Of a stretch of 64,000 nt of DNA, positions 43,875 through 63,179 are shown one piece after another (within the stretch, counting starts at the first letter, position 1; every line of letters begins with the position of its first letter). This DNA is from Aestuariibacter sp. Lineage in GTDB: Bacteria > Pseudomonadota > Gammaproteobacteria > Enterobacterales > Alteromonadaceae. The notes beneath the pieces were generated by a model. The model worked only from the letters and a program-made list of their open reading frames with translations, was not told where the DNA came from and did not search any database. The position numbers and the translations under genes were made by a program. The stretch is taken from NCBI GenBank assembly GCA_017794925.1, contig CP051238.1, positions 4,120,185 to 4,184,184 on the forward strand, given 5' to 3'.

Positions 43875-44708
43875 TTACTCATCGTAAATAGTAGGAATAG
43901 GTACACGCTTGTGCTGCGTTCTCTGATAAATATACAACAATTTCTCAGAGACTTCCGGTGCAACATCCTTGCCTTCCAGGAAATCGTCAATTTGATCGTA
44001 GGTCAGCCCCAATGCTTGCTCATCCGCTTTTTGTGGAGACAAGCTTTCTAAATCAGCCGTTGGTGCTTTGTGAATAATTTTGGCAGGGGCACCAAGATGT
44101 TCCGCCACCTGTCGAACCTGGCGTTTACTTAAACCAAACAAAGGTGCCAGGTCACACGCCCCATCTCCGTACTTGGTGTAAAAACCGGTTATGTTTTCGG
44201 CCGAGTGGTCAGTACCCAGCACGAGACCGTCTACCATGCCGGCGATTTCATATTGAATCACCATACGCGTTCGAGCTTTAACATTGCCTTTTACGAAGTC
44301 TTGTTTGCTTTCGTCCGCAGGCAGCAAACCAGCTGGGGCTAGCGCTTCGCAAGTTTGTGCATGAATGGCATCGGCGCCAGGCTGAACATTTACAGCAACT
44401 GACTTTGTAGGCTTAATGAAGTCAATGGATGCCTGAGCATCTTCTTCGTCAGCCTGAACCTGATAAGGAAGACGCACTGCAATAAATTGATAGGCTTCAT
44501 GATGTTCCTGATTAAGTTCATCTACAGCCAGCTGTGCTAATCGCCCAAGCGTACAAGAATCAATACCGCCGCTTATTCCCAGTACCAGTGAATTCATGCC
44601 TGATTGCAGTAAATGCTTTTTAATAAAGCCAACACGGCGGGTTACTTCATAATCGACATCTATAGCCGGAAGCACCTTCATTTCATCAATAACGGCTTGT
44701 TTGTCCAT
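43875..44708 (-). CDS. nadE: NH3-dependent NAD+ synthetase (no glutaminase domain)
   Basis: [44 protein letters not shown]; 277 aa. Confidence 0.96.
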
Positions 44709-44918: not shown

Positions 44919-45461
44919 ATGCGCCAGGCGGGATACACTTTACTTGAACTGATGGTAACTATTGCCGTACTCAGCATTGTTATTGCTGTGGTAGTGCCTG
45001 GTGCCCGGGATTTAGTCAATCACAGTCGTTTGAGTAGTGAAATAAATGAGTTAAGCAGTATGGCCCGCCTAGCGCGGTTCAAGGCCATGGACGAACAGTC
45101 AAATGTCATTGTGTGCCCGACCAAAGATTACAGCAGTTGCTCAACAAACTGGACATACGGAAAAATGGCGTTTGTGGATATTAACGACGATGGCTCGCGC
45201 AACAGCAACGAAAGTATTCTGGCTTCTACCGAAATAATGAATGGCAGCCTTAAAATTTTTGCACCATCACAATCACTGGTTTTTGACCGGCGCGGCGGCG
45301 CAAATGTAACCACCACCATTATATTATGCGACAGTACGCTACAGGCCTCTGCTGCTGTAGGCTTAATTATTAATGGATACGGCAAAATTGCCATTGCCGC
45401 TGACAGCGATGATGATGGCATCAAGGAAAACCACGCGGGCAACAAGTTGGCGTGTTCATAA
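44919..45461 (+). CDS. GspH/FimT-family minor pilin (FimU-like, set A)
   Basis: MRQAG|YTLLELMV prepilin motif with E5; VIVCP, FDRRG; ATG at 44919. Confidence 0.9.
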   Translation: MRQAGYTLLELMVTIAVLSIVIAVVVPGARDLVNHSRLSSEINELSSMARLARFKAMDEQSNVIVCPTKDYSSCSTNWTYGKMAFVDINDDGSRNSNESILASTEIMNGSLKIFAPSQSLVFDRRGGANVTTTIILCDSTLQASAAVGLIINGYGKIAIAADSDDDGIKENHAGNKLACS

Positions 45462-45572
45462 GCAAGACATTCATTCCATTTCTCATCCAAACAGGGCGTT
45501 AATCTTTAATGCGAACAGCAAACATTCAGCGCTGTTCAAATTGCACGGATAGCGCATTACCCCGCATCTTTA

Positions 45573-45914
45573 TTATTGAGAGCCGACAACTTTGCCACAG
45601 GTAGGGTGCCAGCTTAACACAGTCACCTCACCGTAAATTTCAGCACTGTCTGCCATTTCCTGATGGTATAAACGAGTAAGCATTCCGTTGTTTTCTTCAA
45701 ACGTACAGGTGGGTTGGAAAGCGTATTGCTGCGTTTTTTCGAGATAATCATCAAACGCATTTTGATAGCAGGCCAGCTGTTCAAATTGCCCTTCAAATAC
45801 CGGAGAGTAAAAGTAATTATCACCTTCAATTGATTGAGCATAGCAATAGAAAAATTTTGCATGACTATTGAAAGACAAACTGTATAAAAAAGCGAAAAAG
45901 AAAAGAGGTTTCAT
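45573..45914 (-). CDS. Hypothetical small secreted protein with 4 Cys
   Basis: Signal-like MKPLFFFAFLYSLSFNSHA; 113 aa from ATG at 45914. Confidence 0.7.
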   Translation of the reverse strand: MKPLFFFAFLYSLSFNSHAKFFYCYAQSIEGDNYFYSPVFEGQFEQLACYQNAFDDYLEKTQQYAFQPTCTFEENNGMLTRLYHQEMADSAEIYGEVTVLSWHPTCGKVVGSQ

Positions 45915-46560
45915 TAGGCTTTGTCGAATCAGTAGTAAAGCCGATTCTGATACTGGAAATTTTGAATACAAATCAAAAACTTGGAAAATAGTGACTTACC
46001 TATTGGCATGCCTTGTAAAACACATGGGCATATCCCAAGCCTACTATCCAATATAGATGTATATAAGTGACTTACTACTCCATTTACAAAATGGTATTAG
46101 CGCTAGCTTAATAACACTAAACCACTGTCTTATTTATATATTTTTAGAGTTGTAGCGAAAATCCCTGAGACTCAGCACCCGGGCTACAGACGGTTTAACG
46201 CACTTTCAGCTCATTAAAACAAAATAAAAAATGAAAGAATACAACAAGCATTACAACAATTACAAAAAGAACAACGACCAGACGCTTTTACACGGCACAT
46301 CTGCCCATACAGGTTAAGCCACGCTAAAACAGTAGACAAAAAACCCAATATCAGTCACTTAAGTTTAAAACAAAAAGACAAACAAGAGTATTTCAAGCAT
46401 AAACTTGTATAAAACCTAATCATCCAATACAACCATTTATCAAAAAAATACTTGGTATTCGCGATTATTTTTCGAAAAAATGTAATTTATTACGTATGCT
46501 TTCATGTATCATTACAGAAAATTTTGTACCCTTAATCCAGAAAAAGCGTGGTGAATAACG

Positions 46561-46710
46561 ATGGCACAACAAGACAGCAATGCTCTGAACAATTCATATG
46601 ATGATAACGCAATCCAGGATCGTTCAATTGTTGAAGAATTAGCTGATGCAAAGAAAGAAATCAACGATCTGAAAATGCAGATTATGTGGATGGAACGTCA
46701 TTACGAATAA
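46561..46710 (+). CDS. Small 49-aa hypothetical protein (below the ORF-track cutoff)
   Basis: Manual translation MAQQDSNALNNSYDDNAIQDRSIVEELADAKKEINDLKMQIMWMERHYE*; heptad-like C-terminal half; AT-rich promoter-like DNA upstream. Confidence 0.6.
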   Translation: MAQQDSNALNNSYDDNAIQDRSIVEELADAKKEINDLKMQIMWMERHYE

Positions 46711-46860
46711 TAGTTTACGGCTAACGGCATTGATCCGCTGATAGCAGAAAAGGAACGGGTTTTAGATAATTAAACAAATTAGCTTCAAACACCGTTTGCG
46801 CATGATTCGATGTGTATTTAAACACGAGGAATCGCAATTTGTTAACAGCAGCCGGTATAT

Positions 46861-46909
46861 AAAAAGTAACTGAGTGGCAGCTAGTACGCATTAGCTGCCT
46901 GTAAGTTAC
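46861..46909 (-). terminator. Terminator-like hairpin on the minus strand
   Basis: GTAAC-5nt-GGCAGCTA-8nt-TAGCTGCC-5nt-GTTAC followed by TTTTT on the minus strand. Confidence 0.6.
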
Positions 46910-47081
46910 GACCTGAATCTACACGTTCATCCTAACTCTGCTTGCCATGTCGGACTGATGTAATTATGTGTCGTTTGGTGTGTACCTGTCTGGTTGCATC
47001 TCTCTCCCTTCAAAAATAGACGAACGATCACACCGGTGTTGTCGAAGTTCATATAGACGAAAATTCAGGTATGACAGTGCA

Positions 47082-47405
47082 CTATGCTTGTTTTCGTTTC
47101 GCTTTCATAAACAAATAGAGGTAAGAAGCCATTGCGCCGGTGCTGTAGGACAATACGAGCATGCCGTATTCGTTATTTGCAGTGAAAAATAACGACAGAC
47201 CGATAAAAAACGCAACAAGAAATAGCCAGACCGTTCCTTCAGCCTGAGCATTCTCATCACCAAACATATATTCCATGAAAGGACAAACTACACCACAAAG
47301 GAAGCCCAAGGTAAATTCAGACTCAGGGAACAGAGGTTCAAGACCAAAGGCAATCAGCAGGGATATAAGCAGTGCAACACGACTACGGGTGTAGTGACTC
47401 CACAT
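47082..47405 (-). CDS. Hypothetical small multi-pass membrane protein, last gene of the PilY1 operon
   Basis: 107 aa, about 4 hydrophobic segments, basic tail KAKRKQA; starts 9 nt after the pilE stop. Confidence 0.65.
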   Translation of the reverse strand: MWSHYTRSRVALLISLLIAFGLEPLFPESEFTLGFLCGVVCPFMEYMFGDENAQAEGTVWLFLVAFFIGLSLFFTANNEYGMLVLSYSTGAMASYLYLFMKAKRKQA

Positions 47406-47414
47406 CCTAAGTAA

Positions 47415-47876
47415 TTAGCAAGACCAACAATATTCACTGGCTGCCAGACTGCCGTCGTTGTTCTTGTCCCAGGCTTTCCGTCCGTCACTGAATATATACA
47501 GGTTACCATCGCCAGATTGAGCGGTACCACTTACAGGTATGGCGCGCAGTTCAAAACTATTGCCATCTGTACTGACACTGGTAATCGACAGGGTGTACTT
47601 TTTATCTGAAGCGGGTTCAGTAGAGGGTGAGTGGGTAGCATAAATGGCTGGCGCGCCTGTATTCCCCCCCCCACTGGCTGCACCATTGTAGCTGAATGTC
47701 GTGGCGTAATGTCGCTCCATTGCTGCAGCCAGGCTCATTAAGTCAGCTTTGGCAGTACCGCGATTTGTGCTAACCATCATTGATTGGTAAGACGGGTAAC
47801 CCACCGCGGCAATAATGCCCACAATGACAACAGCAATCATTAACTCGATTAAGGTAAACGCGTTTTGGCGTTTCAT
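47415..47876 (-). CDS. pilE: Type IV minor pilin PilE (set A)
   Basis: MKRQNA|FTLIELMIAVVIVGIIAAVGYPSY...ERHY; ATG at 47876. Confidence 0.92.
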   Translation of the reverse strand: MKRQNAFTLIELMIAVVIVGIIAAVGYPSYQSMMVSTNRGTAKADLMSLAAAMERHYATTFSYNGAASGGGNTGAPAIYATHSPSTEPASDKKYTLSITSVSTDGNSFELRAIPVSGTAQSGDGNLYIFSDGRKAWDKNNDGSLAASEYCWSC

Positions 47877-47877
47877 A

Positions 47878-50800
47878 TTATTGCTCCACTTCCGTCGACC
47901 AACTGCCTCGCATGACGCGTTGGTACCGACCAAATATATTCTGACTCAAACATTCGAATGCAGAGGTACAGGCTTCTTCATTCCCCTGATCATCAATAGG
48001 TACCACTGCCGATACGCACTCTGTCCCCAAGCATATAGTGGGATTAGACGCGTCTTCAATCAATATTTTAGTATCAGGAGCGATACCCGTTTGAGTCAAT
48101 GTAGCAAATCGATCGTCATTAGTAAGGTCGCCGTCAGCGTTTAAGTCCCCCGCCGCGTTTCCATCCAACAAATTAACCAGGTATGCACGGCTGTTACCGG
48201 CAGGTGGCGCACAGGCGCTGGTGCTGCTGGCTGCTGGTACATAGGTGGTAAAGAAGACTTTGTAGTTCACGATAACCGGCGACGATAAGACTTTCTCACC
48301 TGACGTTTGAAGCTGCAGGAACCATCCTTGTTTAGACGCATAATCGCTAATGGCAACACTACGCGTCGCGTCATCACTTGCGGTCAGGGCATGACTGGTG
48401 GCATCAAATAAATCGCTTTCGGTTATCGTACTGGGGAACGTAAACTTGCCACTCGTATCCAGCGTAAATACGCCAGTGTCCTTGATCATATAGAATCGGT
48501 CGTTAACTACCTGATCCAAAGGATTCGCACGCCAGCCGCTGCCAACCACAACGGCATAAAAGTTCTGACTACCCAACGTGACTTCAGATACGTCAACGCC
48601 GTAATAGAAATGGCGATTGTCACCATTTGAGGTTCCAGCCAGATCTGCAATCCGTTGCCCTTTTATGAAATCGCTGCCTGACTTTCCGTTATAAACGTCG
48701 AACCGGAAAATCTGTCCGCCCATATCTGTCGCATACAGGTGGTCGGCAAGACCGTCATTATCGCGGTCAATTGCCGCAATATGGCCGGGAATGGAGTACA
48801 TCATTTCGGTAAGATTTAAGTCAGCACCAGCGTTTGATGCTTCCCACAGTAAGGCACCAGTATCTGCATTAAAGATCATTACCGTATTACCCACGGTGTC
48901 AGGCGTCCGTGTTGGGTGTGTATCTTGTCCAACATCGTAACCACCGCCAACGACCATCACATTGTAAACTGAGCCACCTATATTCATTTTTGTAATGATG
49001 GGGCGGGACCAGGTCTGCCCAAGATTCTCTAGACCGGTACTGCCTCCTTCGATGGTAAATACCAGGCTTGGCGACGTCTTCGATGTAATATCGAACACAT
49101 AATAATTTCGCCCGCCGCGGCGCATACCCACATAAAGGTATTTTTTATTATTAAATTCACGCAACACCATGTGACCATCGAGTCCGTAGATATGCTGATA
49201 GCTTGATGCATCCTGGTAAAAGTCTTTTGCGTTGGCCAGCATGTCTTTTGGCGCTACCGCAAAATACTCATAGCCCGTATCTGCGTCAAAGGCATGCAGA
49301 TAGCCATGATTAGTGGCAATGTAGATAACGGAATCATTGGTACCATAGTTCACGATGACCGGCTGTGAGTGAATAGGATCGCCCATTTGTAATCGCGCCT
49401 CAGTCAGATCTCCATCGCCGTCATAGTCGCGTAAATCTATGCCTCTGCTCCACTGTAAAAGTTGCGTTCTAAGGCCGCTAGGATCACTCTCAGTATCCGT
49501 ATCCATATCGGCCGTTGAAATGGCCGAGTTGTTTTCGTGAACCTGGTTGCTACTTTGAATGATGCTACCGGGACCATCAAAAAAGTAGATATTTCGACTA
49601 CCATAAAGCAACGAGGCGGCCCCACCTTCACGGACATCTGCGCCATCCAGCGTCGGTGACCAGTAACTGTGTGAGCTGTCGGCAAAAAAGCCGGTGTTTT
49701 CATCAATGGCCACTAATCCGTTTTGATCGAACACCTGGTCACCCGAGATACGGTATTTCTTCAGGTTGCCAGGCCAAAGCGTTCCCTCTGCAGGCTTAAA
49801 TAACGCATAATACAATTCGTCCTGGTGAGTCAGACGGTTTAGCTGGTTTACCGCCACACCAGGAGAAACGAACGTGGCATTAACGTCTTTAACGGAACGC
49901 AAAATCGTCTGGAAAGCGGTTAATAGATCTGTACTGTTGCTGGCAGTATAAAAACCACCACCACTGTTTAGTGCTAACCGGTACAAGAAGTTATTCGCCG
50001 TATTATTTGCAGCGAACCCAATGGTGTGTGTAGTGACTTTTGAATTTATCACTGAACTTGCCGACTTACTAATGTTGGACACTAGGTCCAACCCACACAA
50101 CTCTCCTGAGCTGGCAGACTGACAAGATGAACTCAATAAGCTCTGAATCTTTGACGCGCTGTGATTACTGTTAGCTTCGCCGTCTGATAACAACACGATA
50201 TGATTGTTAGTTTGACACTGTAAGTCCTGAACAGGGCTGATATAGGTGGCAGGAGCTGGTATATATTCGCCAACACACGCGCTGTCCCCCAGGTTTGCAT
50301 CGGTACAACCATACGGCTGTACAGCATCACTGCCGGTATAGGAGTCTCTATGACTGACCCGAGTATTTCGTCTCACTGTTGACGATGTATCTGAGCGTCC
50401 ACGAGAGAGCCCGTAATCGACATTCATACCGCCATAATATAGTGACGCTTCGTACAGGGTATCAACAATCGGTGTATACCCACTGGCAGCCAAATCGTCC
50501 ACTTTACTGATTAATAAATCCCGAACCGTCAATGAACTTCCCGCCTGAGCGTTGCCACTGAATTCAACGAAAAGTCTCGGCGCCTGGGATGGTTTGCCCG
50601 TATAAGAATAGGCACCACGAATGTCCGTAAAGTTACTCAGCACAAAGCCAACAGCATTCCCTGCCTGCCAGCCCCCACGCCCGACAATGGCATTTAAAAT
50701 ACTGCTTATGTCGACCGTTTGATAACTGCGATTACGACGGAATTTAGGCATACTCCAGGTGACACCCGCCGTCTTTGCTACGTTCTGGAGGTCATTTTTG

Positions 50801-51948
50801 CTATGAGATCGGAAATTACTGATGTCATCCGCATCGATCCCCTGTATTAACATGGATGCCCCGCTACCATAATCTGAATCGTAAGCGGTAAACTCCAGGT
50901 ACGCAGAGGAAATTGTTGCGCCCTGAGGAATATTTAATTCTTCAAAACGCAGCCCTATAAAGTTGTTAGCGTCACTACGGAACGTTAATTCCTTTCCGGT
51001 TGATTCATTGCCCTTAGTATTCTCTTCTACGTTGTCATATTGATCAGTTATCTGATACTGGGAGCTGTCGGCTATACACCCGGTGGCAGTCGCTTGATCG
51101 TACTCAATAATCAACTGCGGCGCATTCCCCGTTCCATCATCATAACCAATAACCTTACGTGAGCTGGCCGTGCTATTGCCCTGGGCATTTAACAATAACG
51201 TTAATGCGTTTCCACCACACCAGGTAGATAAGTCGATAACCTCCTGAATGACTGGCGTGATATCAGGAGAACTGACTTCTTCGCCATAAGATGGGAATTC
51301 GTTTCCCGTACTCCAGTCTACTGAAGCAGTGGTTTGTGTTTTGGACGTAATAGCGCTACTACCCGTTGTAAGTGCAGAAGAGTTTCCGATGCTTTCTCCG
51401 GCAATGGTAATAGTGGTATCCGCAATGTTATAAGCCGCAGAAGTGAACTTCAGATACGCGGAAGTGATAACCGCCCCTTGTGGGATATTCAGGGATTCAA
51501 ATCGAAATGCTGAGGTTACCGGCGAAGTGGAATAACTGATCACCACCTGATTGGAGGTGGTATTTACACTCGAGCTCATTTCATATCCATCATTCTGTGA
51601 GCTCTGAGTAGATGTACTCATTTGCACATCGACCGTCTGGTTAATATTCGTCACAGGATAGAGGATCGGGCCGCCGTAACCCGAAAAACGCATTAGGCCT
51701 GCATTAATATTCGTTGCCCCTGACAGTGCGGCTTTCAGGGCATTTTGCACCCTTAGCATACGTGATTCAGAGCCTCCATCCATTGACCCCATACTGCCCG
51801 AGGTATCCATAATAAACAGTACATTTGGATTGTAAGTTTGCGCACTGCTTGACGTCCCAATAAAAATATCCAGGTCGTCTGCTACCGCGACATTAAGAAA
51901 CGTAATTAAAGAAAAGCTGCACAACCAGCTAAAACGACGAAATTTCAT
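47878..51948 (-). CDS. pilY1: Type IV pilus tip adhesin PilY1/PilC
   Basis: Signal peptide, vWA MIDAS DTSGS, C-terminal beta-propeller (MGDPIHSQP, TNHGYLHAFD, GQTWSRP, DRDNDGLADHLYATD). Confidence 0.93.
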   Translation of the reverse strand: MKFRRFSWLCSFSLITFLNVAVADDLDIFIGTSSSAQTYNPNVLFIMDTSGSMGSMDGGSESRMLRVQNALKAALSGATNINAGLMRFSGYGGPILYPVTNINQTVDVQMSTSTQSSQNDGYEMSSSVNTTSNQVVISYSTSPVTSAFRFESLNIPQGAVITSAYLKFTSAAYNIADTTITIAGESIGNSSALTTGSSAITSKTQTTASVDWSTGNEFPSYGEEVSSPDITPVIQEVIDLSTWCGGNALTLLLNAQGNSTASSRKVIGYDDGTGNAPQLIIEYDQATATGCIADSSQYQITDQYDNVEENTKGNESTGKELTFRSDANNFIGLRFEELNIPQGATISSAYLEFTAYDSDYGSGASMLIQGIDADDISNFRSHSKNDLQNVAKTAGVTWSMPKFRRNRSYQTVDISSILNAIVGRGGWQAGNAVGFVLSNFTDIRGAYSYTGKPSQAPRLFVEFSGNAQAGSSLTVRDLLISKVDDLAASGYTPIVDTLYEASLYYGGMNVDYGLSRGRSDTSSTVRRNTRVSHRDSYTGSDAVQPYGCTDANLGDSACVGEYIPAPATYISPVQDLQCQTNNHIVLLSDGEANSNHSASKIQSLLSSSCQSASSGELCGLDLVSNISKSASSVINSKVTTHTIGFAANNTANNFLYRLALNSGGGFYTASNSTDLLTAFQTILRSVKDVNATFVSPGVAVNQLNRLTHQDELYYALFKPAEGTLWPGNLKKYRISGDQVFDQNGLVAIDENTGFFADSSHSYWSPTLDGADVREGGAASLLYGSRNIYFFDGPGSIIQSSNQVHENNSAISTADMDTDTESDPSGLRTQLLQWSRGIDLRDYDGDGDLTEARLQMGDPIHSQPVIVNYGTNDSVIYIATNHGYLHAFDADTGYEYFAVAPKDMLANAKDFYQDASSYQHIYGLDGHMVLREFNNKKYLYVGMRRGGRNYYVFDITSKTSPSLVFTIEGGSTGLENLGQTWSRPIITKMNIGGSVYNVMVVGGGYDVGQDTHPTRTPDTVGNTVMIFNADTGALLWEASNAGADLNLTEMMYSIPGHIAAIDRDNDGLADHLYATDMGGQIFRFDVYNGKSGSDFIKGQRIADLAGTSNGDNRHFYYGVDVSEVTLGSQNFYAVVVGSGWRANPLDQVVNDRFYMIKDTGVFTLDTSGKFTFPSTITESDLFDATSHALTASDDATRSVAISDYASKQGWFLQLQTSGEKVLSSPVIVNYKVFFTTYVPAASSTSACAPPAGNSRAYLVNLLDGNAAGDLNADGDLTNDDRFATLTQTGIAPDTKILIEDASNPTICLGTECVSAVVPIDDQGNEEACTSAFECLSQNIFGRYQRVMRGSWSTEVEQ

Positions 51949-52520
51949 TACTGAGCCTCCGTTGAAGGGCCAAATACTGCAACAGTCAGCGTGTTTGCTT
52001 TAGTAACCCGCTTTCCTTCAATTTGACCGCAACCTCGAATAACAAATACGTGGCAGCGCAATCCTCCGCTACCAATAACATTACTGGAACCCCGACATGG
52101 ACGTTCAATAACAAATGCAGTTCTGGACCAGCTGTCTACATCAGGTTGTGAATGGAACTGACCCGTTGAAGTATGTTGCTGCCCTTTAGACAAACCGCTG
52201 GCCGTCAACTGCCTGTTTGTCCAATCAGCACTGTTCGCACAAGCCAGGTCCGAATTCGCCGGATCAAACTGATTCCCCTGTCGGGCGGCGGTAAGTGGGT
52301 CATCGATGAGATCATCTGTTAATATAGTGTCGTCTTCCGATTCAAAGATGACACCCGCAATAGCCGCTTCTGCAGCATCAAAAGCCAATCCCTGTGCCTG
52401 CACCGAACTTGCCATCTTGGTTTGACTTACACTGCTGCTCACCGCAGCCACACCTAACAAGGTAACGCACAATAAAAAAACCAGAGCGATAACCAAAACC
52501 ACGCCTTGTTGCGACTTCAT
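51948..52520 (-). CDS. pilX: Minor pilin PilX (set A)
   Basis: MKSQQG|VVLVIALVFLL, no E5, AFDAAEAAI. Confidence 0.9.
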   Translation of the reverse strand: MKSQQGVVLVIALVFLLCVTLLGVAAVSSSVSQTKMASSVQAQGLAFDAAEAAIAGVIFESEDDTILTDDLIDDPLTAARQGNQFDPANSDLACANSADWTNRQLTASGLSKGQQHTSTGQFHSQPDVDSWSRTAFVIERPCRGSSNVIGSGGLRCHVFVIRGCGQIEGKRVTKANTLTVAVFGPSTEAQ

Positions 52521-53365
52521 AACGCAGCACTCCCCACGTAATTCAGGCTGTTTCGCAATGCCACAGACACAGCAAAAACCTGATAATAATGTTTAACATC
52601 AAGCGTTAATGGCGCTTCCGAGAGTAACCGAACCTGATTGGTTGCCGTATTCTGAATATTTGTCGGGTCGCTTTTCAGCAATAATTCAATGCGAACACTC
52701 ACGACTTGTTGGTTGGCAAGCCGTGCGGCGGCAAGTTGACTGGCATCGACAAACCGGACGACCTGACTGTTGTTGTTATTTACGTCTTCAGACAAGCCGT
52801 ATTCCACCTGAAAACTTGCGACATTATCGAGAATGACGACTTCACTGCTTGGCGTACTATTTCCCACCAGGCCTCGCAAATAGCGACCGCTGTAGCCAAT
52901 ACATTTAAGCTGGTCCCCATCGACAAAATAGCGGTTAACCACATGCATTTCCTGGGGTGCGACCAAACTAAACTTATTGCCGGTGCAGTCTTCACCAGCG
53001 AGTAAATTAACGACAATCTCATCACTATTTGTTGTGCTGCCCTCGCTGCTACCGACCGTTGCCTGAGCATTGTAATCACCGGGCAATGCAATTGGCTGAC
53101 TTTGAACAAAACTGGCTTCCAGCAACAAATCTACCGAATTGTCTACACTGGACACGGTGGTGTCGTACCGGCCCGCTTCCATTAACTCTTCTTGCAAACG
53201 CATGGATATATAGCGGCCGGATTCTTGTACTCCAGCAATCGCCTGATTTAACGTATTGGTTGCGCGGGTGCTCACTAGCACCTGAATAACACCGACGGTT
53301 AACACCAACCCCAGTAGCATGGAGATCATTAACTCGACTAAGGAAAAACCTGACTGTGCTTTCAC
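52517..53365 (-). CDS. pilW: Minor pilin PilW (set A)
   Basis: GTG start, VKAQSG|FSLVELMISMLLGL, ESGRY, NVASFQVEYG, VSVRIELLL, VALRN. Confidence 0.9.
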   Translation of the reverse strand: MKAQSGFSLVELMISMLLGLVLTVGVIQVLVSTRATNTLNQAIAGVQESGRYISMRLQEELMEAGRYDTTVSSVDNSVDLLLEASFVQSQPIALPGDYNAQATVGSSEGSTTNSDEIVVNLLAGEDCTGNKFSLVAPQEMHVVNRYFVDGDQLKCIGYSGRYLRGLVGNSTPSSEVVILDNVASFQVEYGLSEDVNNNNSQVVRFVDASQLAAARLANQQVVSVRIELLLKSDPTNIQNTATNQVRLLSEAPLTLDVKHYYQVFAVSVALRNSLNYVGSAAL

Positions 53366-53982
53366 AGTGTGATCTCCTTGATGACACACGCCCTATTGGT
53401 ACTGCCGGTAATAGCACACCGGGAGTCAGCCTGAACACTGTTTCCGGTACTGGATTTCACCGGCCAGCTCACGGATATACTAATCAGGGAGCCAGAAGAA
53501 CATAACTTAGCATCACCTGTATCGCGGTCGTTGCAAGTCACACTCAGCCACATATTCGGATTGCTACGCACAGCCTGGCAGCTGGCTTCCCAGCCAGTAA
53601 AAGAGGCCAGATCGTTGACGGAGCACTGGGCTCCTCTGCAGTTTGGGATACCTGCCGGTAACGTAAGACATAAACACTGATAATTGTCGGTGCTGGCGCT
53701 ACACGTCACATTCTGAAAGTTGTAAACATTGTCGTTCAGAAATGCATCGTCAATTTCCCAACCATCGTCGGTAGTGGATGGCTCAGCTACCGCAACAAGT
53801 TGTTCAGCGACATAGCGGGCAACCAGTTCCCCCTGACTCCGGCTAACAGACTGCACATTGTTGAATGTGCCGGTAAACTGCAATGACGCCACACCCAGCA
53901 ATCCCACTGACAGCACGAAGAGACTCACTAGAATCTCCATCATACCGACACCGGTTTGGGTTGCTGGACGTTGTCTTATCAT
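53362..53982 (-). CDS. pilV: Minor pilin PilV (set A)
   Basis: QTG|VGMMEILVSLFVLSVGLLGVASLQ; ATG at 53982 preferred. Confidence 0.9.
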   Translation of the reverse strand: MIRQRPATQTGVGMMEILVSLFVLSVGLLGVASLQFTGTFNNVQSVSRSQGELVARYVAEQLVAVAEPSTTDDGWEIDDAFLNDNVYNFQNVTCSASTDNYQCLCLTLPAGIPNCRGAQCSVNDLASFTGWEASCQAVRSNPNMWLSVTCNDRDTGDAKLCSSGSLISISVSWPVKSSTGNSVQADSRCAITGSTNRACVIKEITL

Positions 53983-54262
53983 TTCTGATACCTGTTGTGT
54001 TCTGCCTGACCGCATTTTAATTAGCCTGCATTCGCGCTGTACCGACATGGATGTCCTGCTTAGCGTCAAAACATGCACCATTACGTACTAGCATAGTAGA
54101 TAAATTCGCCGAAAATTGCATGGGATTAGGGTAGCTGTGCAGGCTGTTTCGTATAAGTTTGAATAACTGTCTTCAATTCGTTCAAAACCTGTACCCATGT
54201 ATAGCTGTGTTATCGGAAGCGCATAGGTATTGTTTAGCTTCAACAGCAAGCAAGGGATCATT

Positions 54263-54784
54263 ATGCAACAAACAGAAGCTGGCAGGTCGCTGATTGAGCT
54301 GCTGATATGCCTGACTGTTCTATCGATTCTACTTGTCAAAGGTGTAAGTAGCTATGCGTCAATGCAAAAACGCCAGCATCTGATTGGAGCAGCCCAGGAC
54401 AGCTATTTTTTTCTGCAGCGAGCAAGAAGTGAGTCCATTCGCAATAACAGAACGATTTATGTTGTCATCCAACCATTAGGAGCTAGTTGCCTCGGGCTAA
54501 GTGAGCAACCCGGTTGCCAGTGTAATACCAGCCAAAGTTGCGTTATCGACCAACAACAAAACGTGCTTTACTATTCAGCATACCCGAGTGTCACCTTAAC
54601 TAAGGTGTCCTTCGGTAACCCACCCCAAAGTCGCTTTTTACCGCCGCGGGGGATGGCAACCGGATTTGCAGGTAGCCTGCAACTTACCAACGGCGAGCAC
54701 ACCTTGAAAGTTCTGCTAAGTAATATGGGCAGAGTTCGTATTTGCACAACAACACCGCCCTTTTCCCCTTTTAAAAGCTGTTAG
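54263..54784 (+). CDS. fimT: GspH/FimT-family minor pilin with C-terminal GRxR motif (set B)
   Basis: MQQTEAG|RSLIELL, LQRARSESI, C-terminal SNMGRVRIC. Confidence 0.85.
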   Translation: MQQTEAGRSLIELLICLTVLSILLVKGVSSYASMQKRQHLIGAAQDSYFFLQRARSESIRNNRTIYVVIQPLGASCLGLSEQPGCQCNTSQSCVIDQQQNVLYYSAYPSVTLTKVSFGNPPQSRFLPPRGMATGFAGSLQLTNGEHTLKVLLSNMGRVRICTTTPPFSPFKSC

Positions 54785-54898
54785 CGATGAAAGTGGATCG
54801 CAATCATATCCAGAACTGATACTATGTGCGCCACCTTTGCCGCCGATGTCTATACTCAAAATAGCAGACGTTTGCGCCTTTTATTATCCGGAATCACT

Positions 54899-55447
54899 AT
54901 GGCACTCAAAGCGACCATTTTTAAAGCTGATATATCCATATCGGATATGGACCGCAATTATTATAACGATCACAATTTAACGATTGCCCGACATCCCTCA
55001 GAAAACGATGCCCGCATGATGTTGCGTATTATTGCGTTCATTGTTAACGCCCACGAGCGGTTACAATTTACCAAGGGGTTGTCTGACGACGACGTACCGG
55101 ACCTTTGGCAAAAAAGCTTCAGTGATGAAATTGAACTATGGATTGAGCTCGGTCAGCCTTCTGAACAGCGCATTAAAAAAGGCTGCAATCAAAGCCAACA
55201 GATGATGATTTATGCCTATGCCGATAACAGCTTTGATGCCTGGTGGAAGAAAGAACAATCAAAGTTGCAGACCAGAAACAACCTTTCAGTCTTCACTCTG
55301 CCAGCTGAACTTGCCGATTCCCTTGAAAGTGTGGTTCAACGTTCAATGCAAATTCAGGTCACCATTCAGGACGGGCAAATGTGGTTGACGGTGGAAGGTC
55401 CTGATGTCACTGAAAGCTTAGAGGTTGCCATTGAAAAGTGGCTATAA
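54899..55447 (+). CDS. yaeQ: YaeQ family protein
   Basis: MALKATIFKADISISDMDR, ARHPSENDARMMLR, FTKGLS..DVPDLW, LWIELGQP. Confidence 0.93.
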   Translation: MALKATIFKADISISDMDRNYYNDHNLTIARHPSENDARMMLRIIAFIVNAHERLQFTKGLSDDDVPDLWQKSFSDEIELWIELGQPSEQRIKKGCNQSQQMMIYAYADNSFDAWWKKEQSKLQTRNNLSVFTLPAELADSLESVVQRSMQIQVTIQDGQMWLTVEGPDVTESLEVAIEKWL

Positions 55448-55499
55448 ATGATGTCTCTCGTTATTAACTACTGTCGGGACATGAATCTGTTACATCGAA

Positions 55500-56084
55500 T
55501 CAATTAGACGCTACTGAAAGCCCAACATAGGGAATAGGTGCAACATAGGGGTTTAGCGCAACCCCGGCTCTGGCGGCCAAAATCGGGGCAATCACACCTT
55601 CAGCTGTAACTGTGTTTAGTCTGCCATGAAAGTTAGTCCAGCTCACCGTCACGACGACATGTTTAGCTTGAACAGATAGCGGAAGCGATCGTTGAGTAAG
55701 GGAAAGCTGACTGCGTGTTTGCCAACTGTCTGGCTGACCGTCACCGCTGGTATCAACGAAGAAGAGAGCCGTTGACTGCCAGGAACGTTGAAACCTGACC
55801 GAGGTTACTGCACTCACGGGATAAACGATTTGTCCGCCGTTCATCTGCCCGCCTTTATTTGACGCAATACTCCGGAAGTCATCAGTGGCCGACGTCGGTG
55901 ACGTCAGCCACTGAAAGTTCGCCAGATCGTCCAGTTTTTCCTGTGCAAGAAAACGAGCATGTGTCCGCAATGTCTGCTGCTCATTCATATGTACAAGATG
56001 GGTTTGCAACGTGATCAACCCTGCCCCTGACAGAGCAACCAATGATGTCGCAATAAGCAATTCTACGAAAGAAAAGCCTCGCAT
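55500..56084 (-). CDS. PilV/PpdC-like minor pilin (set B)
   Basis: MRG|FSFVELLIA, AQEKLDDL, VTVSW. Confidence 0.85.
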   Translation of the reverse strand: MRGFSFVELLIATSLVALSGAGLITLQTHLVHMNEQQTLRTHARFLAQEKLDDLANFQWLTSPTSATDDFRSIASNKGGQMNGGQIVYPVSAVTSVRFQRSWQSTALFFVDTSGDGQPDSWQTRSQLSLTQRSLPLSVQAKHVVVTVSWTNFHGRLNTVTAEGVIAPILAARAGVALNPYVAPIPYVGLSVASN

Positions 56085-56093
56085 ATCTTGTCC

Positions 56094-57230
56094 TCAGAAA
56101 TCCCGCCAGCTACCCGGAATAACGGTCGCTCGGGTAAATGGCTTTTGTTGCAAATTGTTCAGCGCGTTTTTATCGTAAATTACCGTCGTTTTTGTACTTG
56201 CTGTATCGACTAATTGATTAGCCACCAATGCACCGTGGATGACAGCACTGTTATTTGAGGAAATATGGAACGGCCCATTTTTCGCTGTTGTAACGGCCCA
56301 AAACACCAATCCATGAATTGAGACACCAGCCTGAAGTGTCAGGCTACCATTTACAACAACCAGCAACACAGGCTCAGCCGAGCTTCCCAGAGTGACACCC
56401 GGCGCAACGACGCAATCGCCGTGTACCCAAATGAAACCTGAAGTTTGGGAAGATAGCGAAGAGCAATCAGAGGTTCTTATATTGGCCTCTTGCTCCAACA
56501 CTGCTACATCACTGGCGTTTAGATTAAACACATAGAGCCACAAGTCCGCAGGAAACGTTTTGTTGTTATCCAGGACGTCACTGCCAAATACTCCCGAATG
56601 ACTCAGCGTATTAATCCCACATCCAGTTAGGCTGATCTGGCCAGGATGACATGTTTCCAAGCCTATGGACCGGCTCACAATAGGCGCAGTCCAAAGTGCC
56701 AGCGCTTTCCCCTGCCCGAGTCCATCATTGTTAACTCCGACAACGAAATGACTGCTCTGGGTCATCCCGGCAGACAAAGAAGTGAGTCCTCCACCAATCA
56801 TGACAGGTGCCGGAGGTACACGTGCAACAATGGGGTAAATCACCGCACTCGCTACCACGTTTGCGTGGGTCAACCCGTCTGAAGTGGTGCCTTTCGAGCT
56901 TATTGATATAACGCGCTGCAGTGATGTTCCCGCAGGTACTGGCTTGTCGGTTGTCTGCACCACGAAATGACTGCCAGATGAAAGCGTCCCTCCTGTTCCG
57001 GTAGATGACCAGTCCGGTTTTGCCTGCAAGGTTGCCAGTGTATGATTAAGCCCCTTGTTGGCTGCATTCAGCGCAAGTTTTCGACTCTGCACATTGTTGA
57101 GTATTTGTAACTCTATGGACTTCACTCTGCTGACATAAGCGGTAACCAGTGCGGCCAGTATAAGTAAAAGCAGTACTGCGCTGAGCAGCGCCATCCCCGA
57201 ACTTTTAAATTGCAGATGGCTACCCCACAT
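56094..57230 (-). CDS. PilX-like minor pilin with a large C-terminal domain (set B)
   Basis: SSG|MALLSAVLLLL, no E5, ALNAANKGL; 378 aa. Confidence 0.85.
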   Translation of the reverse strand: MWGSHLQFKSSGMALLSAVLLLLILAALVTAYVSRVKSIELQILNNVQSRKLALNAANKGLNHTLATLQAKPDWSSTGTGGTLSSGSHFVVQTTDKPVPAGTSLQRVISISSKGTTSDGLTHANVVASAVIYPIVARVPPAPVMIGGGLTSLSAGMTQSSHFVVGVNNDGLGQGKALALWTAPIVSRSIGLETCHPGQISLTGCGINTLSHSGVFGSDVLDNNKTFPADLWLYVFNLNASDVAVLEQEANIRTSDCSSLSSQTSGFIWVHGDCVVAPGVTLGSSAEPVLLVVVNGSLTLQAGVSIHGLVFWAVTTAKNGPFHISSNNSAVIHGALVANQLVDTASTKTTVIYDKNALNNLQQKPFTRATVIPGSWRDF

Positions 57231-57840
57231 GATTTCTCACCAGCACCGTTTTAATGTAGGTTTGCGATAGTCCGGAATTGGCTTTTAAGTGCCCTGATAG
57301 TCGAATTGCAATGCGGGTAACGGGCACCCCGTTATGATTCACTGTGGTAGGTTGAAAAGACAGTTCAGTGACAACGACAACATCGTTATCGGTTATATCT
57401 TCCCATCCTTTGGTTTGACAACCAGCGCCGACCTTACGCACTTCTATGGTTTTGTTTTGCAGCCGGTAACCAAACAGTTCGTTCGGATATTGTGTGTCCA
57501 GCACGCCATTGCTGTTTGCATCATAACGAAAAGTGACACAGGAGTTAGCGGGCTCGCCTGAATAGGCACCAAATAACAAGTGTTGGCTGAAAGCACTGCC
57601 AACCGCGCCGGGTTGTAATATCTGCTGCGTATTGCCGTTATAGCCTGCTCGCTGGAGATCAGATTGTATCAAGGCAAAAACATTGCCCAACTCTTCCGTC
57701 AGCCGCGCGTTATTGAGCAGGTGATTATTCAGACTGACTGAACCTGCTACCAAACTGGTAAGCGCAAGCATTGCCCCACTGCCAAGCCCCAACACGATAA
57801 TGAGCTCGGGTAAGGCCATTCCCTGCCAATGTCGTCTCAT
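57220..57840 (-). CDS. PilW/PpdB-like minor pilin (set B)
   Basis: WQG|MALPELII, IQSDLQRAGY, SCVTFRYD, FGYRL, VLVRN. Confidence 0.87.
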   Translation of the reverse strand: MRRHWQGMALPELIIVLGLGSGAMLALTSLVAGSVSLNNHLLNNARLTEELGNVFALIQSDLQRAGYNGNTQQILQPGAVGSAFSQHLLFGAYSGEPANSCVTFRYDANSNGVLDTQYPNELFGYRLQNKTIEVRKVGAGCQTKGWEDITDNDVVVVTELSFQPTTVNHNGVPVTRIAIRLSGHLKANSGLSQTYIKTVLVRNHVG

Positions 57841-58004
57841 ATCGTCATTCGCTCAGTTATCCCTTCATGACGTCAGTTTGCACCACGCGATACCTGAGCA
57901 ACACTGTCCCTGTTGCCGGTTTTTCGAAAGCCCGACCAAAGGACGTTGGATACCCTGGTGCATTTGGCTAGTCTTGAGACCCTGACTGACAAAGGATTGA
58001 TGGG

Positions 58005-58379
58005 ATGAGACACGACACGCAAACAGGGTTTACGTTACTGGAATTAATGATAGGACTGCTTATTATCGGTATTCTGAGTGCCGTCGCGATGCCTGTCTAT
58101 CAGGAGCAAATTCGAAAGGTACGCAGGGATGCAGTAAAAATGCAGTTGTTGAGTTTACATATCGACCAGCAGGCATATCGCCTTCAAAACCCCACGTTTG
58201 CCACTGGTCAGAAACTGGTCTTGCCGTTGTCGGACTTCTATCAGTTCTCGGTGGCGAATGTGTCTTCACAAACCTTTGTTCTTACCGCAAAGGCACTCGG
58301 CACGCAAAAACAGGACAAGGGATGTGTAAGCTTAACCATCGATCAGTCGATGACTCGTCAACCCAGCGGTTGCTGGTGA
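58005..58379 (+). CDS. pilE: Type IV minor pilin PilE (set B)
   Basis: QTG|FTLLELMIGLLIIGILSAVAMPVYQEQIRKVRR, FVLTAKALGTQKQDKGC. Confidence 0.9.
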   Translation: MRHDTQTGFTLLELMIGLLIIGILSAVAMPVYQEQIRKVRRDAVKMQLLSLHIDQQAYRLQNPTFATGQKLVLPLSDFYQFSVANVSSQTFVLTAKALGTQKQDKGCVSLTIDQSMTRQPSGCW

Positions 58380-58406: not shown

Positions 58407-58436
58407 AAACAGGTTAGCGAGTTAGCTAACCTGTTT
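58407..58436. terminator. Hairpin between convergent pilE(B) and ispH
   Basis: AAACAGGTTAGC-GAGTTA-GCTAACCTGTTT, overlapping the ispH stop codon. Confidence 0.7.
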
Positions 58437-59366
58437 GATACGCAGTTCTTTCGGTACCGCAAATTCAATGTTTTCTTCGCGGCCCGGGCGCTCAGACGCC
58501 GTTACGGCTCCCCAGTCCAGCAAACGCTGAATAACGCGTTTTACCAATACTTCAGGGGCTGATGCACCGGCAGTGACACCAATGTGCTCCACGCCGTCCA
58601 GCCACTCTTTCTGAATACAAGCTTCATCTGCAATCAAATAGGCCTTTGCACCGATTTTCTCTGCCAACTCACGCAATCGATTAGAGTTTGAGCTGTTTTG
58701 TGCGCCAACCACCAATAACACCTGACAATCCTGAGCCAGTTCACGAACCGCATCCTGACGATTTTGTGTGGCATAACAGATATCGTCTTTGCGTGGCCCT
58801 TCAATTTTCGGGAAACGCTGACGTAGCGCATCGATAACGTCTGCGGTATCGTCTACCGACAGCGTTGTCTGACTGCAGTAGTAAAGTGCATTGGGATTTT
58901 TTACTTCCAGCGTGGCTACATCGTCGCTGGACTCAACCAAATAAATGCCGCCTTCCGGATTGTCGTACTGACCCATTGTGCCTTCCACTTCCGGGTGACC
59001 AGCGTGACCAATCAGAATACACTCGGTACCCCGTTTACTGGCACGGGTGACTTCTAAATGCACTTTTGTGACCAACGGACAGGTAGCATCAAAGACTTTT
59101 AAGCCACGACGCTCTGCTTCTTTGCGCACTGCCTGAGACACACCGTGCGCAGAAAAAATGACGATGTTGTCATCTGGCACTTCGGTAAGCTCATCGACGA
59201 ATATCGCGCCGCGTTCTTTCAGGCCATCAACCACAAACCGGTTGTGGACCACTTCATGACGCACATAAATCGGTGGCTGAAAGATTTCCAGCGCGCGCTC
59301 AACAATGGTTATGGCTCGGTCAACACCGGCACAAAAACCTCGCGGATTAGCTAAGTGAATTTGCAT
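58422..59366 (-). CDS. ispH: 4-hydroxy-3-methylbut-2-enyl diphosphate reductase
   Basis: [50 protein letters not shown]. Confidence 0.98.
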
Positions 59367-59383
59367 ACCACAGGCTCCTTGGC

Positions 59384-59836
59384 TTATGCGTTGATCACGT
59401 CAATGATTTCAACATCAAACACCACGGTTTGTCCAGCAAGAGGATGATTAAAGTCCACTGTGACTGAATCACCTGCCACACTGCGTACAATACCGGGCAC
59501 TTCGCTGCCGTCGGGTTGTGCAAACGCAATAATAGTGCCGGGTTCAATGGCCATCTCGCCACTGAAACGACTCCGGTCCATATGATGAATGTTGTCTGGG
59601 TTTGACTGTCCGAATGCGTCATCCGGGCCCAGCTCAAAGGACTTTTTATCACCAGCTTTCAAACCCAGCAAACAGGCTTCAAAGTTCGGTGTTAAGCTGC
59701 CGTCGCCCATAACTAATTTTGCGGGCTTCTTATTAACTCGCGTACTGTCTGCCGCGGAGCCGTCTGATAACTTCAGGTCAAAATGCATAATAACCTGACT
59801 GCTTGGGCCAATGACCGGTAAGGCTTGTTCGCTCAC
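59384..59836 (-). CDS. fkpB: FKBP-type peptidyl-prolyl isomerase FkpB/SlpA
   Basis: [20 protein letters not shown]; lspA-fkpB-ispH synteny. Confidence 0.94.
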
Positions 59837-59839
59837 GGT

Positions 59840-60364
59840 TTATTTCTCACTTGCTGATTGGGTTGTCGTATCGCTGGTGCTGTCTGATTTGTTCGTTAAC
59901 ATGTCCCAAATCAATAATGCTGCACCAACGAAGATTGCGCTGTCGGCTAAATTAAATGCCGGCCAGTGCCAATCATTTACGTAAAAATCCAGAAAATCGA
60001 TGACATAGCCATGCACAATACGGTCATAAACATTACCGATCGCACCGCCTAAAATGAAACTAAAGGCCACCGGCAGCAGCTTTTGTTGCTTGGGCGTTTG
60101 CTTTAACCACCACAAGATCACCGCACTGACGGCAATGGCGATGGCAGTGAAAAACCAGCGCTGCCAGCCACCTGCGCCATGCAGGAAACTAAATGCCGCA
60201 CCGTAGTTATGCACGTAGGTGAAGTTGAAGAACGGCATTACCTGAATAGACTCATACAAGTCCATTTTGGCCATTACCTCGTATTTACTCCACAGATCCA
60301 GCAGCACAGTAACAGCACTGATCCAAAGAAAACGCAGCCCGGTTTGGCTTACCACATTAAGCAT
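59840..60364 (-). CDS. lspA: Lipoprotein signal peptidase II
   Basis: [36 protein letters not shown]; ATG at 60364 overlaps the ileS stop. Confidence 0.96.
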
Positions 60365-63179
60365 AGTGACGTACTTCTCCGTCGCCATCTACGTTCGTCA
60401 CACAGCGGCCACACAGCTCATCGTGACCTGCATGTGAGCCTACATCTTCACGGTGGTGCCAGCAGCGAACACATTTTTCGCCAGCCGTTTTGGCCACACT
60501 GACAAACAAACCAGACACATCGGTCTTCTCAGCGTCGTTAGTTTTTTCTGTAGAAGCTTTCACTGTCGCGCCCGAGGTGATTAAAACGAAACGCAGTTCA
60601 TCACCTAACAGGTCCAACTGCGTTTTTAATGCTTCATCGGCATACAAGGTAATATCGGCTTCCAGTGAGCCGCCTAGTACCTGTGCTTTACGCGCTTGTT
60701 CCAACGCTTGGTTAACCGCATCTTTCACGGCCATGATCTGTTGCCAGAAATCATCGTCCAGTGCGCCGTCCTGAGTAAAGCTGTTGAAGCCGTCATACCA
60801 GGTTTCAGTGAACACGAACTTGCCGCGCTCACCCGGCATTTCCTGCCAGATTTCCTGAGCAGTAAAACTGGTGATCGGTGCCATCCAGCGAACCAATGCT
60901 TCTGCAATGTGGTACAGCGCTGTTTGGCATGAACGACGCGCAACACTGTCCTGCTTAGCGGTGTACTGTCTGTCTTTGATGATATCCAAATAGAAGCTAC
61001 CCAGATCAAGCGAACAGAAGTGCGTGAGCTTTTGCGATACCACCAGCAGGTCGTAGCGCTCATAAGCAGCAACCAGCTCTTCCTGTAACTGCTTGGCACG
61101 GGTGACCATCCAGCGATCCAGTGCCACCATATCCTGTTCAGCAACTAAGTCAGTAGCAGGGTTAAATCCATTCAGGTTAGCTAGCAGGAAACGGGATGTG
61201 TTACGCAAACGGCGATAGTTATCGGCGGCGCGTTTCAAAATTTCATCTGACACCGCGATTTCACCGCGGTAATCCGTAGAGGCAACCCACAAACGCAGGA
61301 TGTCTGCTCCGAGTTTGTTAGTCACTTCCTGAGGCGCAACCACGTTACCCAAAGACTTGGACATTTTCTTGCCCTGGGCGTCCACGGTAAAACCATGGGT
61401 CAGCACTTGCTTGTATGGCGCGTGACCATGCATCGCAGTAGATGTCATTAAAGACGACATAAACCAGCCGCGGTGTTGGTCAGAACCTTCCAGGTACAAA
61501 TCAGCTGACGCCGGGATATCGTCGCGACAATCCACAACAAAGAAATGTGTCACACCTGAATCGAACCATACGTCCAGCGTGTCAGTTACTTTTTCGTATT
61601 GGTCCGCATCACTACCCAGCAACGCCGCATCGTCGATATCCCACCAGGCCTGAATCCCTGAGGTTTCAATGTCCGCCGCAACTTTTTCGATTAGCGCAGA
61701 GGTTTCAGGGTGCAGTTCACCCGAAACTTTGTGTACGTAAAGTGGAATTGGCACACCCCAGGTACGCTGACGAGAGATACACCAGTCAGGTCGACCTTCT
61801 ACCATTTTGCTGATGCGGTTTTCGCCCCACTCCGGGATCCACTGGGTATTGCGAATTTGTTCTAACGACTGCTCGCGTAAACCCAGCTTGTCCATGCTCA
61901 CAAACCATTGTGGCGTGGCACGGAAAATAATCGGCGTTTTGTGACGCCAGCAGTGCGGATAGCTGTGCTCATAAGCCACATTCAATACCAGATTGCCATG
62001 CTCGGCCAGGGTATCGATAACCGACTGGTTCGCTTTAAACACATGCTGACCCGCAAACAGCGGCGTATTTTCTAAATACACCCCGTTGTTGCCAACCGGG
62101 TTGTACACTTCAATGTCGTACTGCTTACACACGTTAAAGTCGTCTACACCATGTGCAGGCGCAGTGTGAACACAACCAGTACCTGACTCGGTTGTGACGT
62201 GGTCGCCCAGCACGATAAGTGACGTTTTATCCAGGAAAGGATGCTGTAAGCGCGCTTTATCCAGCACACCGCCAATGCACGTTGCTATAACGTTAAACGC
62301 TTCACTGCCGTAACGTTTGGCACAACTTTCTGCCAGGTCACTGGCTACAATCAACCAGTCAGACGCGCCTTCCAGCGCGATAAGCGCATACTCTAACTCT
62401 GGGTGCAGACTCACGGCCAGGTTGGCAGGCAAGGTCCAAGGGGTTGTTGTCCAGATAACAACGCCGGTGTTGTGCGCTTTTAAATCGTCTTCGCTAACGC
62501 CGAAGGCTTTAGCAAACACGTCGACGTCTGCCAACGGAAATTTCACATCGATGGCGGGCGACGTTTTGTCTTTGTACTCAACTTCCGCTTCAGCCAGGGC
62601 TGAGCCACAGTCGGTACACCAGTGAACCGGCTTAAAGCCTTTTTCCAGGTGACCGGCTTCAATGATTTTGCCCAGTGCGCGAACAATATTGGCTTCTGAC
62701 GCGAAATCCATCGTTTTGTATGGCTTATCCCACTCGCCCAGTACACCCAGACGTTTAAAGTCTGCCATCTGGCCATCGATTTGCTTTTGCGCGTAGTCGC
62801 GGCACTTCTGGCGAAACTCTGCGGCACTGACCTTCACACCAGGTTTGCCGACTTTCTTCTCTACCATCAGTTCGATAGGCAGGCCGTGACAGTCCCATCC
62901 CGGCACATAAGGCGCATCGAAGTCAGACAGAGTTTTTGACTTAACAATAATGTCTTTGAGGATCTTATTCACCGCGTGACCAATGTGAATATTTCCATTG
63001 GCATACGGGGGGCCGTCGTGCAGCACAAAAGGCGTTTTACCGGCTTTGGCTTCACGAATTTGCTTATACAAACCTTGCTTTTCCCAGCTTTTCAGCATTT
63101 GGGGTTCACGTTGGGCAAGGTTTCCACGCATCGGAAACTGAGTTTCCGGCAAATTCAGTGTGGCTTTATAATCACTCAT
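60357..63179 (-). CDS. ileS: Isoleucyl-tRNA synthetase
   Basis: [20 protein letters not shown]-terminal Zn motif KCVRCWH...LCGRC. Confidence 0.98.

Follow-up and report, generated by a model that had tools for sequence, protein, structure and literature searches.

The locus described here lies in a window of 64,000 nucleotides of DNA from Aestuariibacter sp. (G000:C1:4120185-4184184, where G000 is the source genome and C1 its single contig of 4.74 Mb and 47% GC). The named homologs nearest to the locus proteins are from Alteromonas species. Between nadE (43875-44708) and ispH-fkpB-lspA-ileS (58422-63179) there are 11 genes of the type IV pilin type and three others. The 11 genes form two core minor-pilin sets, both complete, within window positions 44919-58379. 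Set A comprises fimU and pilV-W-X-Y1-E, while set B comprises a solo fimT, a W-X-V operon and a divergent pilE, and is without PilY1; the set to which a protein belongs is given below in parentheses. All 11 are intact open reading frames (ORFs) at the coordinates given in an earlier note on this DNA, and their family assignments (Table 1) uphold its view that two complete and different kits share the locus. That note had set B as FimT-PilW-PilX-PilV-PilE. The content, the W-X-V order and the lack of PilY1 hold, but fimT is not in the operon and yaeQ lies between the two.

The set A genes pilV, pilW, pilX, pilY1 and pilE form a tight minus-strand operon, which runs from 53982 to 47415. The PilW, PilX_N and PilY1 domains are found in consecutive genes, each above its cut-off. 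PilY1(A) has a von Willebrand factor A (vWA) N-terminal part and the PilY1 propeller, and is the sole PilY1 match in the genome. Orthologs of pilV(A) are found at the same position in relatives. The C-terminus of FimU(A) reads G-K-I-A followed by an acidic tail, with no GRxR motif. The protein groups in a FimU clade (100/100 support) with 13 orthologs from relatives, none of which has the second basic residue. Set A is like the Pseudomonas aeruginosa fimT-fimU-pilVWXY1Y2E locus in its genes (a GspH-type FimU and pilV-W-X-Y1-E) and their order, and ispH-fkpB-lspA-ileS are neighbors of both. It differs from that locus in three respects: fimU stands apart and is convergent to the operon, no pilY2 was recognized, and a second, PilY1-free kit is present.

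No Pfam match was found for the PilW, PilX or PilV of set B. FimT(B) is matched over its whole length by the PpdA model NF007800, and PilW(B) likewise by the PpdB model NF007848, both with scores under the equivalog cut-offs (Table 1); judged from their sequences, the two proteins are homologs of the PpdA/PpdB family type and not equivalogs. A metagenomic PilW(B) homolog bears the source name "prepilin peptidase dependent protein B". The homolog search gave few matches for PilX(B) and PilW(B) owing to its word index; distant homologs of PilX(B) bear PilX_N. PilV(B) aligns to residues ~1-195 of PilVs of 681-705 residues in relatives and stops where their C-terminal module starts, and one of these large PilVs matches TIGR02523 with an E value of 1.8e-9. 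Sequence searches of the PDB with FimT(B), FimU(A) and PilW(B) returned N-terminal helix matches or nothing. In each kit PilX is the sole pilin without Glu5, which fits the expectation for a cap, and three or four pilins have this residue.

Set B can be compared with the competence-pilus minor pilins of Vibrio cholerae, FimT (VC0858), PilW (VC0859), PilX (VC0860) and PilV (VC0861), in which DNA binding depends on the G-[R/K]-x-[R/K] motif of FimT (PMC12040237). With this set and with E. coli ppdA-ppdB-ygdB-ppdC it shares the W-X-V order (fimT-W-X-V in relatives), a G-R-x-R FimT and the lack of PilY1. It differs from them in its model scores, in the solo fimT, in the presence of a PilY1 kit in the same genome and in the lack of a full TfoX and of a CRP-S site.

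Table 1. Features of the minor-pilin locus (window positions)
Feature	Set	Position	Strand	Characteristics
fimU	A	44919-45461	+	GspH-type minor pilin; PF12019 42.8 bits (cut-off 21) and N_methyl
pilE	A	47415-47876	-	N_methyl and PF16732 (ComP/PilE Pfam family); begins directly after the pilY1 stop
pilY1	A	47878-51948	-	1356 residues; PF05567 34.1 bits, VWA and VWA_2
pilX	A	51948-52520	-	190-residue short capping pilin, no Glu at +5; PF14341 (PilX_N) 41.2 bits
pilW	A	52517-53365	-	PF16074 60 bits and N_methyl
pilV	A	53362-53982	-	TIGR02523, E 9.6e-11; 42.3 bits, below the curated cut-off (52.2)
pilV(A)/fimT(B) divergent intergenic region		53983-54262		280 bp
fimT	B	54263-54784	+	GspH-type; PF12019; PpdA model NF007800 73.7 bits (equivalog cut-off 158)
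yaeQ		54824-55447	+	PF07152 245.7 bits; between fimT(B) and the W-X-V operon
pilV	B	55500-56084	-	194 residues, pilin module only; weak TIGR02523 match
pilX	B	56094-57230	-	378 residues; mature N-terminus M-A-L-L-S, no Glu at +5
pilW	B	57220-57840	-	PpdB model NF007848 90.7 bits, full length (equivalog cut-off 120)
pilW(B)/pilE(B) divergent intergenic region		57841-58004		164 bp
pilE	B	58005-58379	+	N_methyl and PF16732 54.1 bits; divergent from the W-X-V operon

The AlphaFold2 model of PilX(B), built on 26 sequences, has a predicted local distance difference test (pLDDT) value of 84.7. In this model a beta-solenoid (residues ~131-355) is inserted into a pilin fold of helix and sheet. This insertion matches the solenoids of ice-binding proteins in VIA-align (Z 11-12.5, root-mean-square deviation 3.1-3.4 A over 165-170 residues), and the pilin part matches pseudopilins of the GspI/EpsI type (Z 7-9). 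The Foldseek top match is ComZ of Thermus thermophilus (PDB 6qvi; PMC6561018), with a probability of 0.99; VIA-align gives Z 10.2 with 268 residues aligned, and the identity is ~12-13%. Clusters of the AlphaFold Database named "PilX N-terminal domain" are matched with a probability of 1.0 and TM-scores up to 0.67. PilX(B) is thus modeled as a capping pilin with an ice-binding-protein-like beta-solenoid, akin to Thermus ComZ and to cyanobacterial PilX. ComZ likewise has a pilin fold with an inserted beta-solenoid, but the solenoid of PilX(B) is shorter, and DNA binding by PilX(B) is hypothetical. Proteobacterial PilX is called small in PMC13759059, to which PilX(B) is an exception.

For comparison, 21 regions with the locus were retrieved from 20 genomes of the genus, one of which contributed two, and three loci came from other families. 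The nadE-ispH interval holds up to three kits, designated A, B1 and B2. B1 has a pilE and fimT-W-X followed by a small V; B2, which adjoins ispH, has a pilE and fimT-W-X followed by a V of 681-705 residues. The window holds A and B2, and the combinations found across species are A+B1, A+B2, B1+B2 and A+B1+B2. Nearly all B-type sets examined in relatives have a divergent pilE beside them; the exceptions are the set of the sister genome G039 and the second set of locus L032, where no such gene was found. Of 60 further genomes of the genus, all have PilW(B) homologs and 53 have PilY1, one of these only as a remnant. The seven in which PilY1 was not matched hold two B-type sets each. Every genome sampled therefore has at least two kits. 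These counts, together with the families of the order described below that have strong PpdB but no PilY1 matches, indicate that either kit is able to stand alone elsewhere. The double kit is not special to the source genome. In another family of the same GTDB order, ileS-lspA-fkpB-ispH is followed by pilVWXY1E, fimU, pilE and fimT-W-X-V, with an X of 374 residues and a V of 681 residues. In a sample of 151 genomes of the order, PilY1 was not matched in the families whose PpdB matches were strongest, and several others had both; only full-length matches to NF007848 were used here, as the search at E ≤ 0.001 was swamped by helix-only matches.

FimT(B) is a stand-alone paralog outside the W-X-V operon, divergent from pilV(A) and with an intergenic region common to both. 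It has the sequence GRVR 15 residues before its C-terminus, and among the GspH-type pilins of the locus this motif is found only there, as the earlier note had said. The motif G-R-x-[R/K] is present in 5/5 solo FimTs and 13/13 B1 FimTs, and in 0/7 B2-operon FimTs and 0/14 FimUs. Two cysteines near the C-terminus are conserved (C161 nearly invariant, C173 invariant), and the D-region is probably stapled by a disulfide. Phylogenetic reconstruction places the solo FimTs, which are found only in this sub-lineage, in a clade that is sister to the B2-operon FimTs (98/98) and distant from FimU (100/100). The mature N-terminus of FimT(B) is G|RSLIEL, with Arg at +1 and Glu5 kept. The solo FimT orthologs of sister species, encoded at L011:6286-6804, L029:8739-9260 and L030:11724-12251, have Gln or His at +5 in place of Glu; N-termini of either kind are unusual for assembled pilins.

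A four-chain prediction with mature PilW(B), PilX(B), PilV(B) and FimT(B), in which FimT was the partner, scored 0.81 against 0.38 for the best control, although a pass may show likeness only, because minor-pilin complexes have already been solved. Of 80 solved complexes 58 reached the mark for such scores, as did two of 110 mismatched pairs. At least 97% of the contacts were the same between runs, and the partner had a pLDDT of 82. The predicted interface includes stretches of PilW(B) and PilX(B), and R157 and R159 of GRVR are among its residues.

The major pilin and the ATPases all lie outside the window, in agreement with the earlier note. A PpdD-like pilA is followed directly by pilC and pilD (G000:C1:2075627-2078287), with no pilB among them, and pilT and pilU are also present. 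The genome has three secretins, two at the loci for the type II secretion system (T2SS) and the MSHA pilus and one downstream of pilM (pilM at 330563). Besides GspE and MshE there is only one PilB-like ATPase, a protein of 739 residues with the domains GAF-MshEN-T2SSE (G000:C1:415870-418089). Its gene adjoins a 7TMR-DISM GGDEF gene. The protein is conserved in all 25 of the other genomes of the genus that were checked, and may be an extension motor gated by cyclic di-GMP or a ligand. On the sequence evidence the genome is one with a single type IVa pilus (T4aP) machine, made up of pilA-pilC-pilD, pilMNOPQ, pilT/pilU and, elsewhere, the GAF-domain PilB-like ATPase; the one secretin and platform of this type agree with the shared machine that the earlier note proposed. 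The T2SS and MSHA loci each hold their own pseudopilins, and assignment of set B to either system was rejected on this ground. The genome also has three orphan genes for MshA-like pilins away from the MSHA locus (G000:C1:2006543-2007061, 3491272-3491763 and 4515204-4515695).

The competence genes comEA and comEC, on which the earlier note had made its case for DNA uptake depend, are present, together with dprA. The same genes were matched in most named control genomes and are therefore weak evidence for competence. Transcriptional control finds less agreement with the earlier note, which had looked to tfoX/CRP induction as a check and to four promoter regions that would allow a switch. The only TfoX is a protein of 108 residues with a TfoX_N domain (G000:C1:1159266-1159592; L026:2267-2593), and no TfoX_C domain was found in the genome. 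No CRP-N or CRP-S site was found in three promoter regions, among them the two divergent intergenic regions of Table 1, at up to two mismatches. Searches for sequencing runs with the locus listed DNA runs and no RNA run. The four supposed promoter regions are intergenic gaps; a scan for sigma-70 sites and terminators gave no more sites than in shuffled sequences and was uninformative.

These features suggest that two complete, alternative core minor-pilin kits probably prime and tip the single T4aP machine of this genome. Kit A, of the Pseudomonas type, consists of FimU-PilV-PilW-PilX bearing the large PilY1 vWA/propeller protein, with PilE. Kit B, of the Vibrio and enterobacterial type, consists of FimT-PilW-PilX-PilV with PilE, and has a ComZ-like solenoid PilX as its predicted cap and a G-R-x-R FimT. 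Whichever kit nucleates assembly would set what tips the PilA filament, and the cell would be able to make both PilY1-tipped pili and solenoid-capped pili bearing FimT. By analogy, the latter would be the better DNA-binding candidate of the two, although the solo FimT might join kit A too. A DNA-uptake role of set B is plausible from its genes. That Alteromonas and neighboring families use one machine for PilY1-tipped pili and for true competence pili with a solenoid and a GRxR FimT is put forward only tentatively.

Several observations weigh against this interpretation. The cut-off of the PilB model is reached by no ATPase in the genus, nor in any named control genome. No report of natural transformation in Alteromonas was found in the literature. 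The B2 kit of the window is reduced relative to its closest outgroups, in that the operon fimT and a PilV C-terminal module of ~500 residues are missing. The Arg at +1 of FimT(B) and the replacement of Glu5 by Gln or His in orthologs of sister species make efficient incorporation uncertain. Finally, the complex prediction does not discriminate between kit A and kit B as the partner of FimT(B).

Work on Synechocystis (2026) and Myxococcus (2020) has already established the general principle that one machine may have alternative tip sets, and the earlier note's view of the locus as the best candidate for an undescribed system is not supported. Synechocystis has alternative core minor-pilin complexes, Com and EPS, on one machine, which serve competence versus adhesion or motility, and its PilX has an ice-binding-like beta-solenoid and is proposed to take the role of PilY1 as the filament cap (PMC13759059). 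Two distinct FimT-PilW-PilV-PilX sets per machine and a solenoid PilX are common to that system and the present one; cyanobacteria, however, are without PilY1, whereas here the solenoid PilX is in one kit and PilY1 in the other. Myxococcus xanthus has three alternative minor-pilin/PilY1 clusters (PMC7541494). There, too, several complete kits go with one major pilin and one machine, and a single kit is sufficient, but all three kits have PilY1 and the same architecture. Legionella pneumophila has a minor-pilin locus of the PilY1 type and, as its DNA receptor in transformation, an orphan FimT (PMC8897410). This FimT, like FimT(B), is a stand-alone GspH-type pilin with a C-terminal GRxR; FimT(B) differs in its two conserved C-terminal cysteines, in Arg at +1 and in adjoining both kits. 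FimTs of Alteromonadales with GRxR were already listed in the survey of Braus et al. (PMC8897410). For Xylella, PMC9956873 reports neofunctionalization of paralogous type IV pilus genes, and DNA binding by FimT3 is attributed to the same paper in PMC12040237. No description was found in the literature of Pseudomonas-type and Vibrio-type kits combined in one locus, of at least two kits in every genome sampled of a genus, or of a proteobacterial PilX with a ComZ-like solenoid.

The earlier note had assigned kit A to adhesion and kit B, as probable, to DNA uptake. In its strict form, with kit A used only for adhesion and surface-sensing pili, kit B only for DNA-uptake pili and transcription as the switch, this proposal appears doubtful. 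It draws on the likeness of set B to the V. cholerae competence minor pilins in gene order and in PpdA/PpdB model matches (PMC12040237), on the restriction of GRVR to FimT(B), on the resemblance of PilX(B) to the competence pilin ComZ (PMC6561018), on the presence of comEC, comEA and dprA, and on Synechocystis, where exactly this logic has been seen (PMC13759059). Against it, the competence genes are of little diagnostic value, no full TfoX or CRP-S site is present, and Legionella combines a PilY1-type locus with an orphan FimT as its DNA receptor (PMC8897410). The fimT(B) gene is solo and has its promoter region in common with pilV(A), the B-operon FimT of sister species is without the second basic residue, and species that lack kit A must rely on B-type kits for all T4aP functions. 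A different proposal, that the kits are interchangeable and are kept for diversity of the tip (for instance escape from pilus-specific phages or grazers, or different surfaces) with no special part in DNA uptake, is in our view unlikely. The kits differ in architecture as well as in sequence, with PilY1 in one and a solenoid PilX in the other, and GRxR is conserved in B1 and solo FimTs and never found in FimU, which points to a kit-specific property. In favor of tip diversity are the differing kit content of species, the greater divergence of set B described below, and the case of M. xanthus, where clusters 1 and 3 each suffice for the same function (PMC7541494).

Comparison with the sister genome G039 bears on both the divergence and the integrity of set B. 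The protein identity between the two genomes is 92-95% for set A and 54-77% for set B, and the nonsynonymous divergence (dN) is 0.03-0.05 and 0.17-0.41, respectively, with saturated synonymous divergence (dS). This gap is compatible with diversifying pressure on the B kit or with an exchange of alleles there. The dN/dS ratio was computable for only one set B gene, pilV(B), where it is 0.13, and pilV(B) at least is therefore constrained. Intact ORFs despite saturated dS suggest that the rest of set B is also constrained while the set evolves fast. Decay of set B to a non-functional remnant is accordingly very improbable as an explanation of the locus, even though the in-operon fimT and the PilV module of close relatives are lost, yaeQ is inserted and the N-terminus of FimT is atypical. 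All five set B ORFs are intact here and four of five in G039, where pilE(B) was not found, and the confident PilX(B) model and the four-chain score against its controls also speak against decay. No remnant of the in-operon fimT or of the PilV C-terminal module was detected in the locus by tblastn. In G039 (L028 = G039:C1:9000-28999) the region downstream of pilW(B) differs, with neither pilE(B) nor ispH there.

Should the pili made with the two kits differ in function, Alteromonas would offer a tractable model among Proteobacteria of how a priming complex re-tools one machine and, within a major group of marine copiotrophs, a candidate for natural transformation. If kit B forms true competence pili, an abundant marine genus would be naturally transformable, and the cyanobacterial "Com versus adhesion" logic of dual priming would extend to Proteobacteria.

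The C-terminal module of the large B2 PilVs has a conserved CCRDHHDT motif and is lacking in PilV(B) of both the window and G039. No match to the module was found in Pfam or NCBIfam, and no usable match in the ESM Atlas; the AlphaFold2 model of the 694-residue PilV of a relative (pLDDT 57) was too poor for a fold search. It may represent an adhesin of the pilus tip that has become joined to a minor pilin. Large B2 PilVs are encoded at L029:6642-8726, L011:6809-8893, L012:11741-13858 and L036:15740-17785.

The three other genes of the interval are yaeQ and two ORFs 3' of pilE(A), at 47082-47405 and 45573-45971. The yaeQ gene is single copy in the genome and was found at the pilin locus of no relative examined, G039 included; it is probably a passenger outside the kit, its position being incidental. 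The two ORFs, which have no family matches, are separated by a stretch of 1.1 kb with 37% GC (within window positions 45573-47405), and no remnant of a deleted B1 set was found in this gap (45972-47081). Of the proteins encoded on its two sides, orf132 has a signal-like N-terminus and orf107 is a membrane protein. In G039 orf107 is kept 3' of pilE(A), with 61-63% identity, and in other genomes its site is the place of pilY2-like small genes or of the B1 kit.

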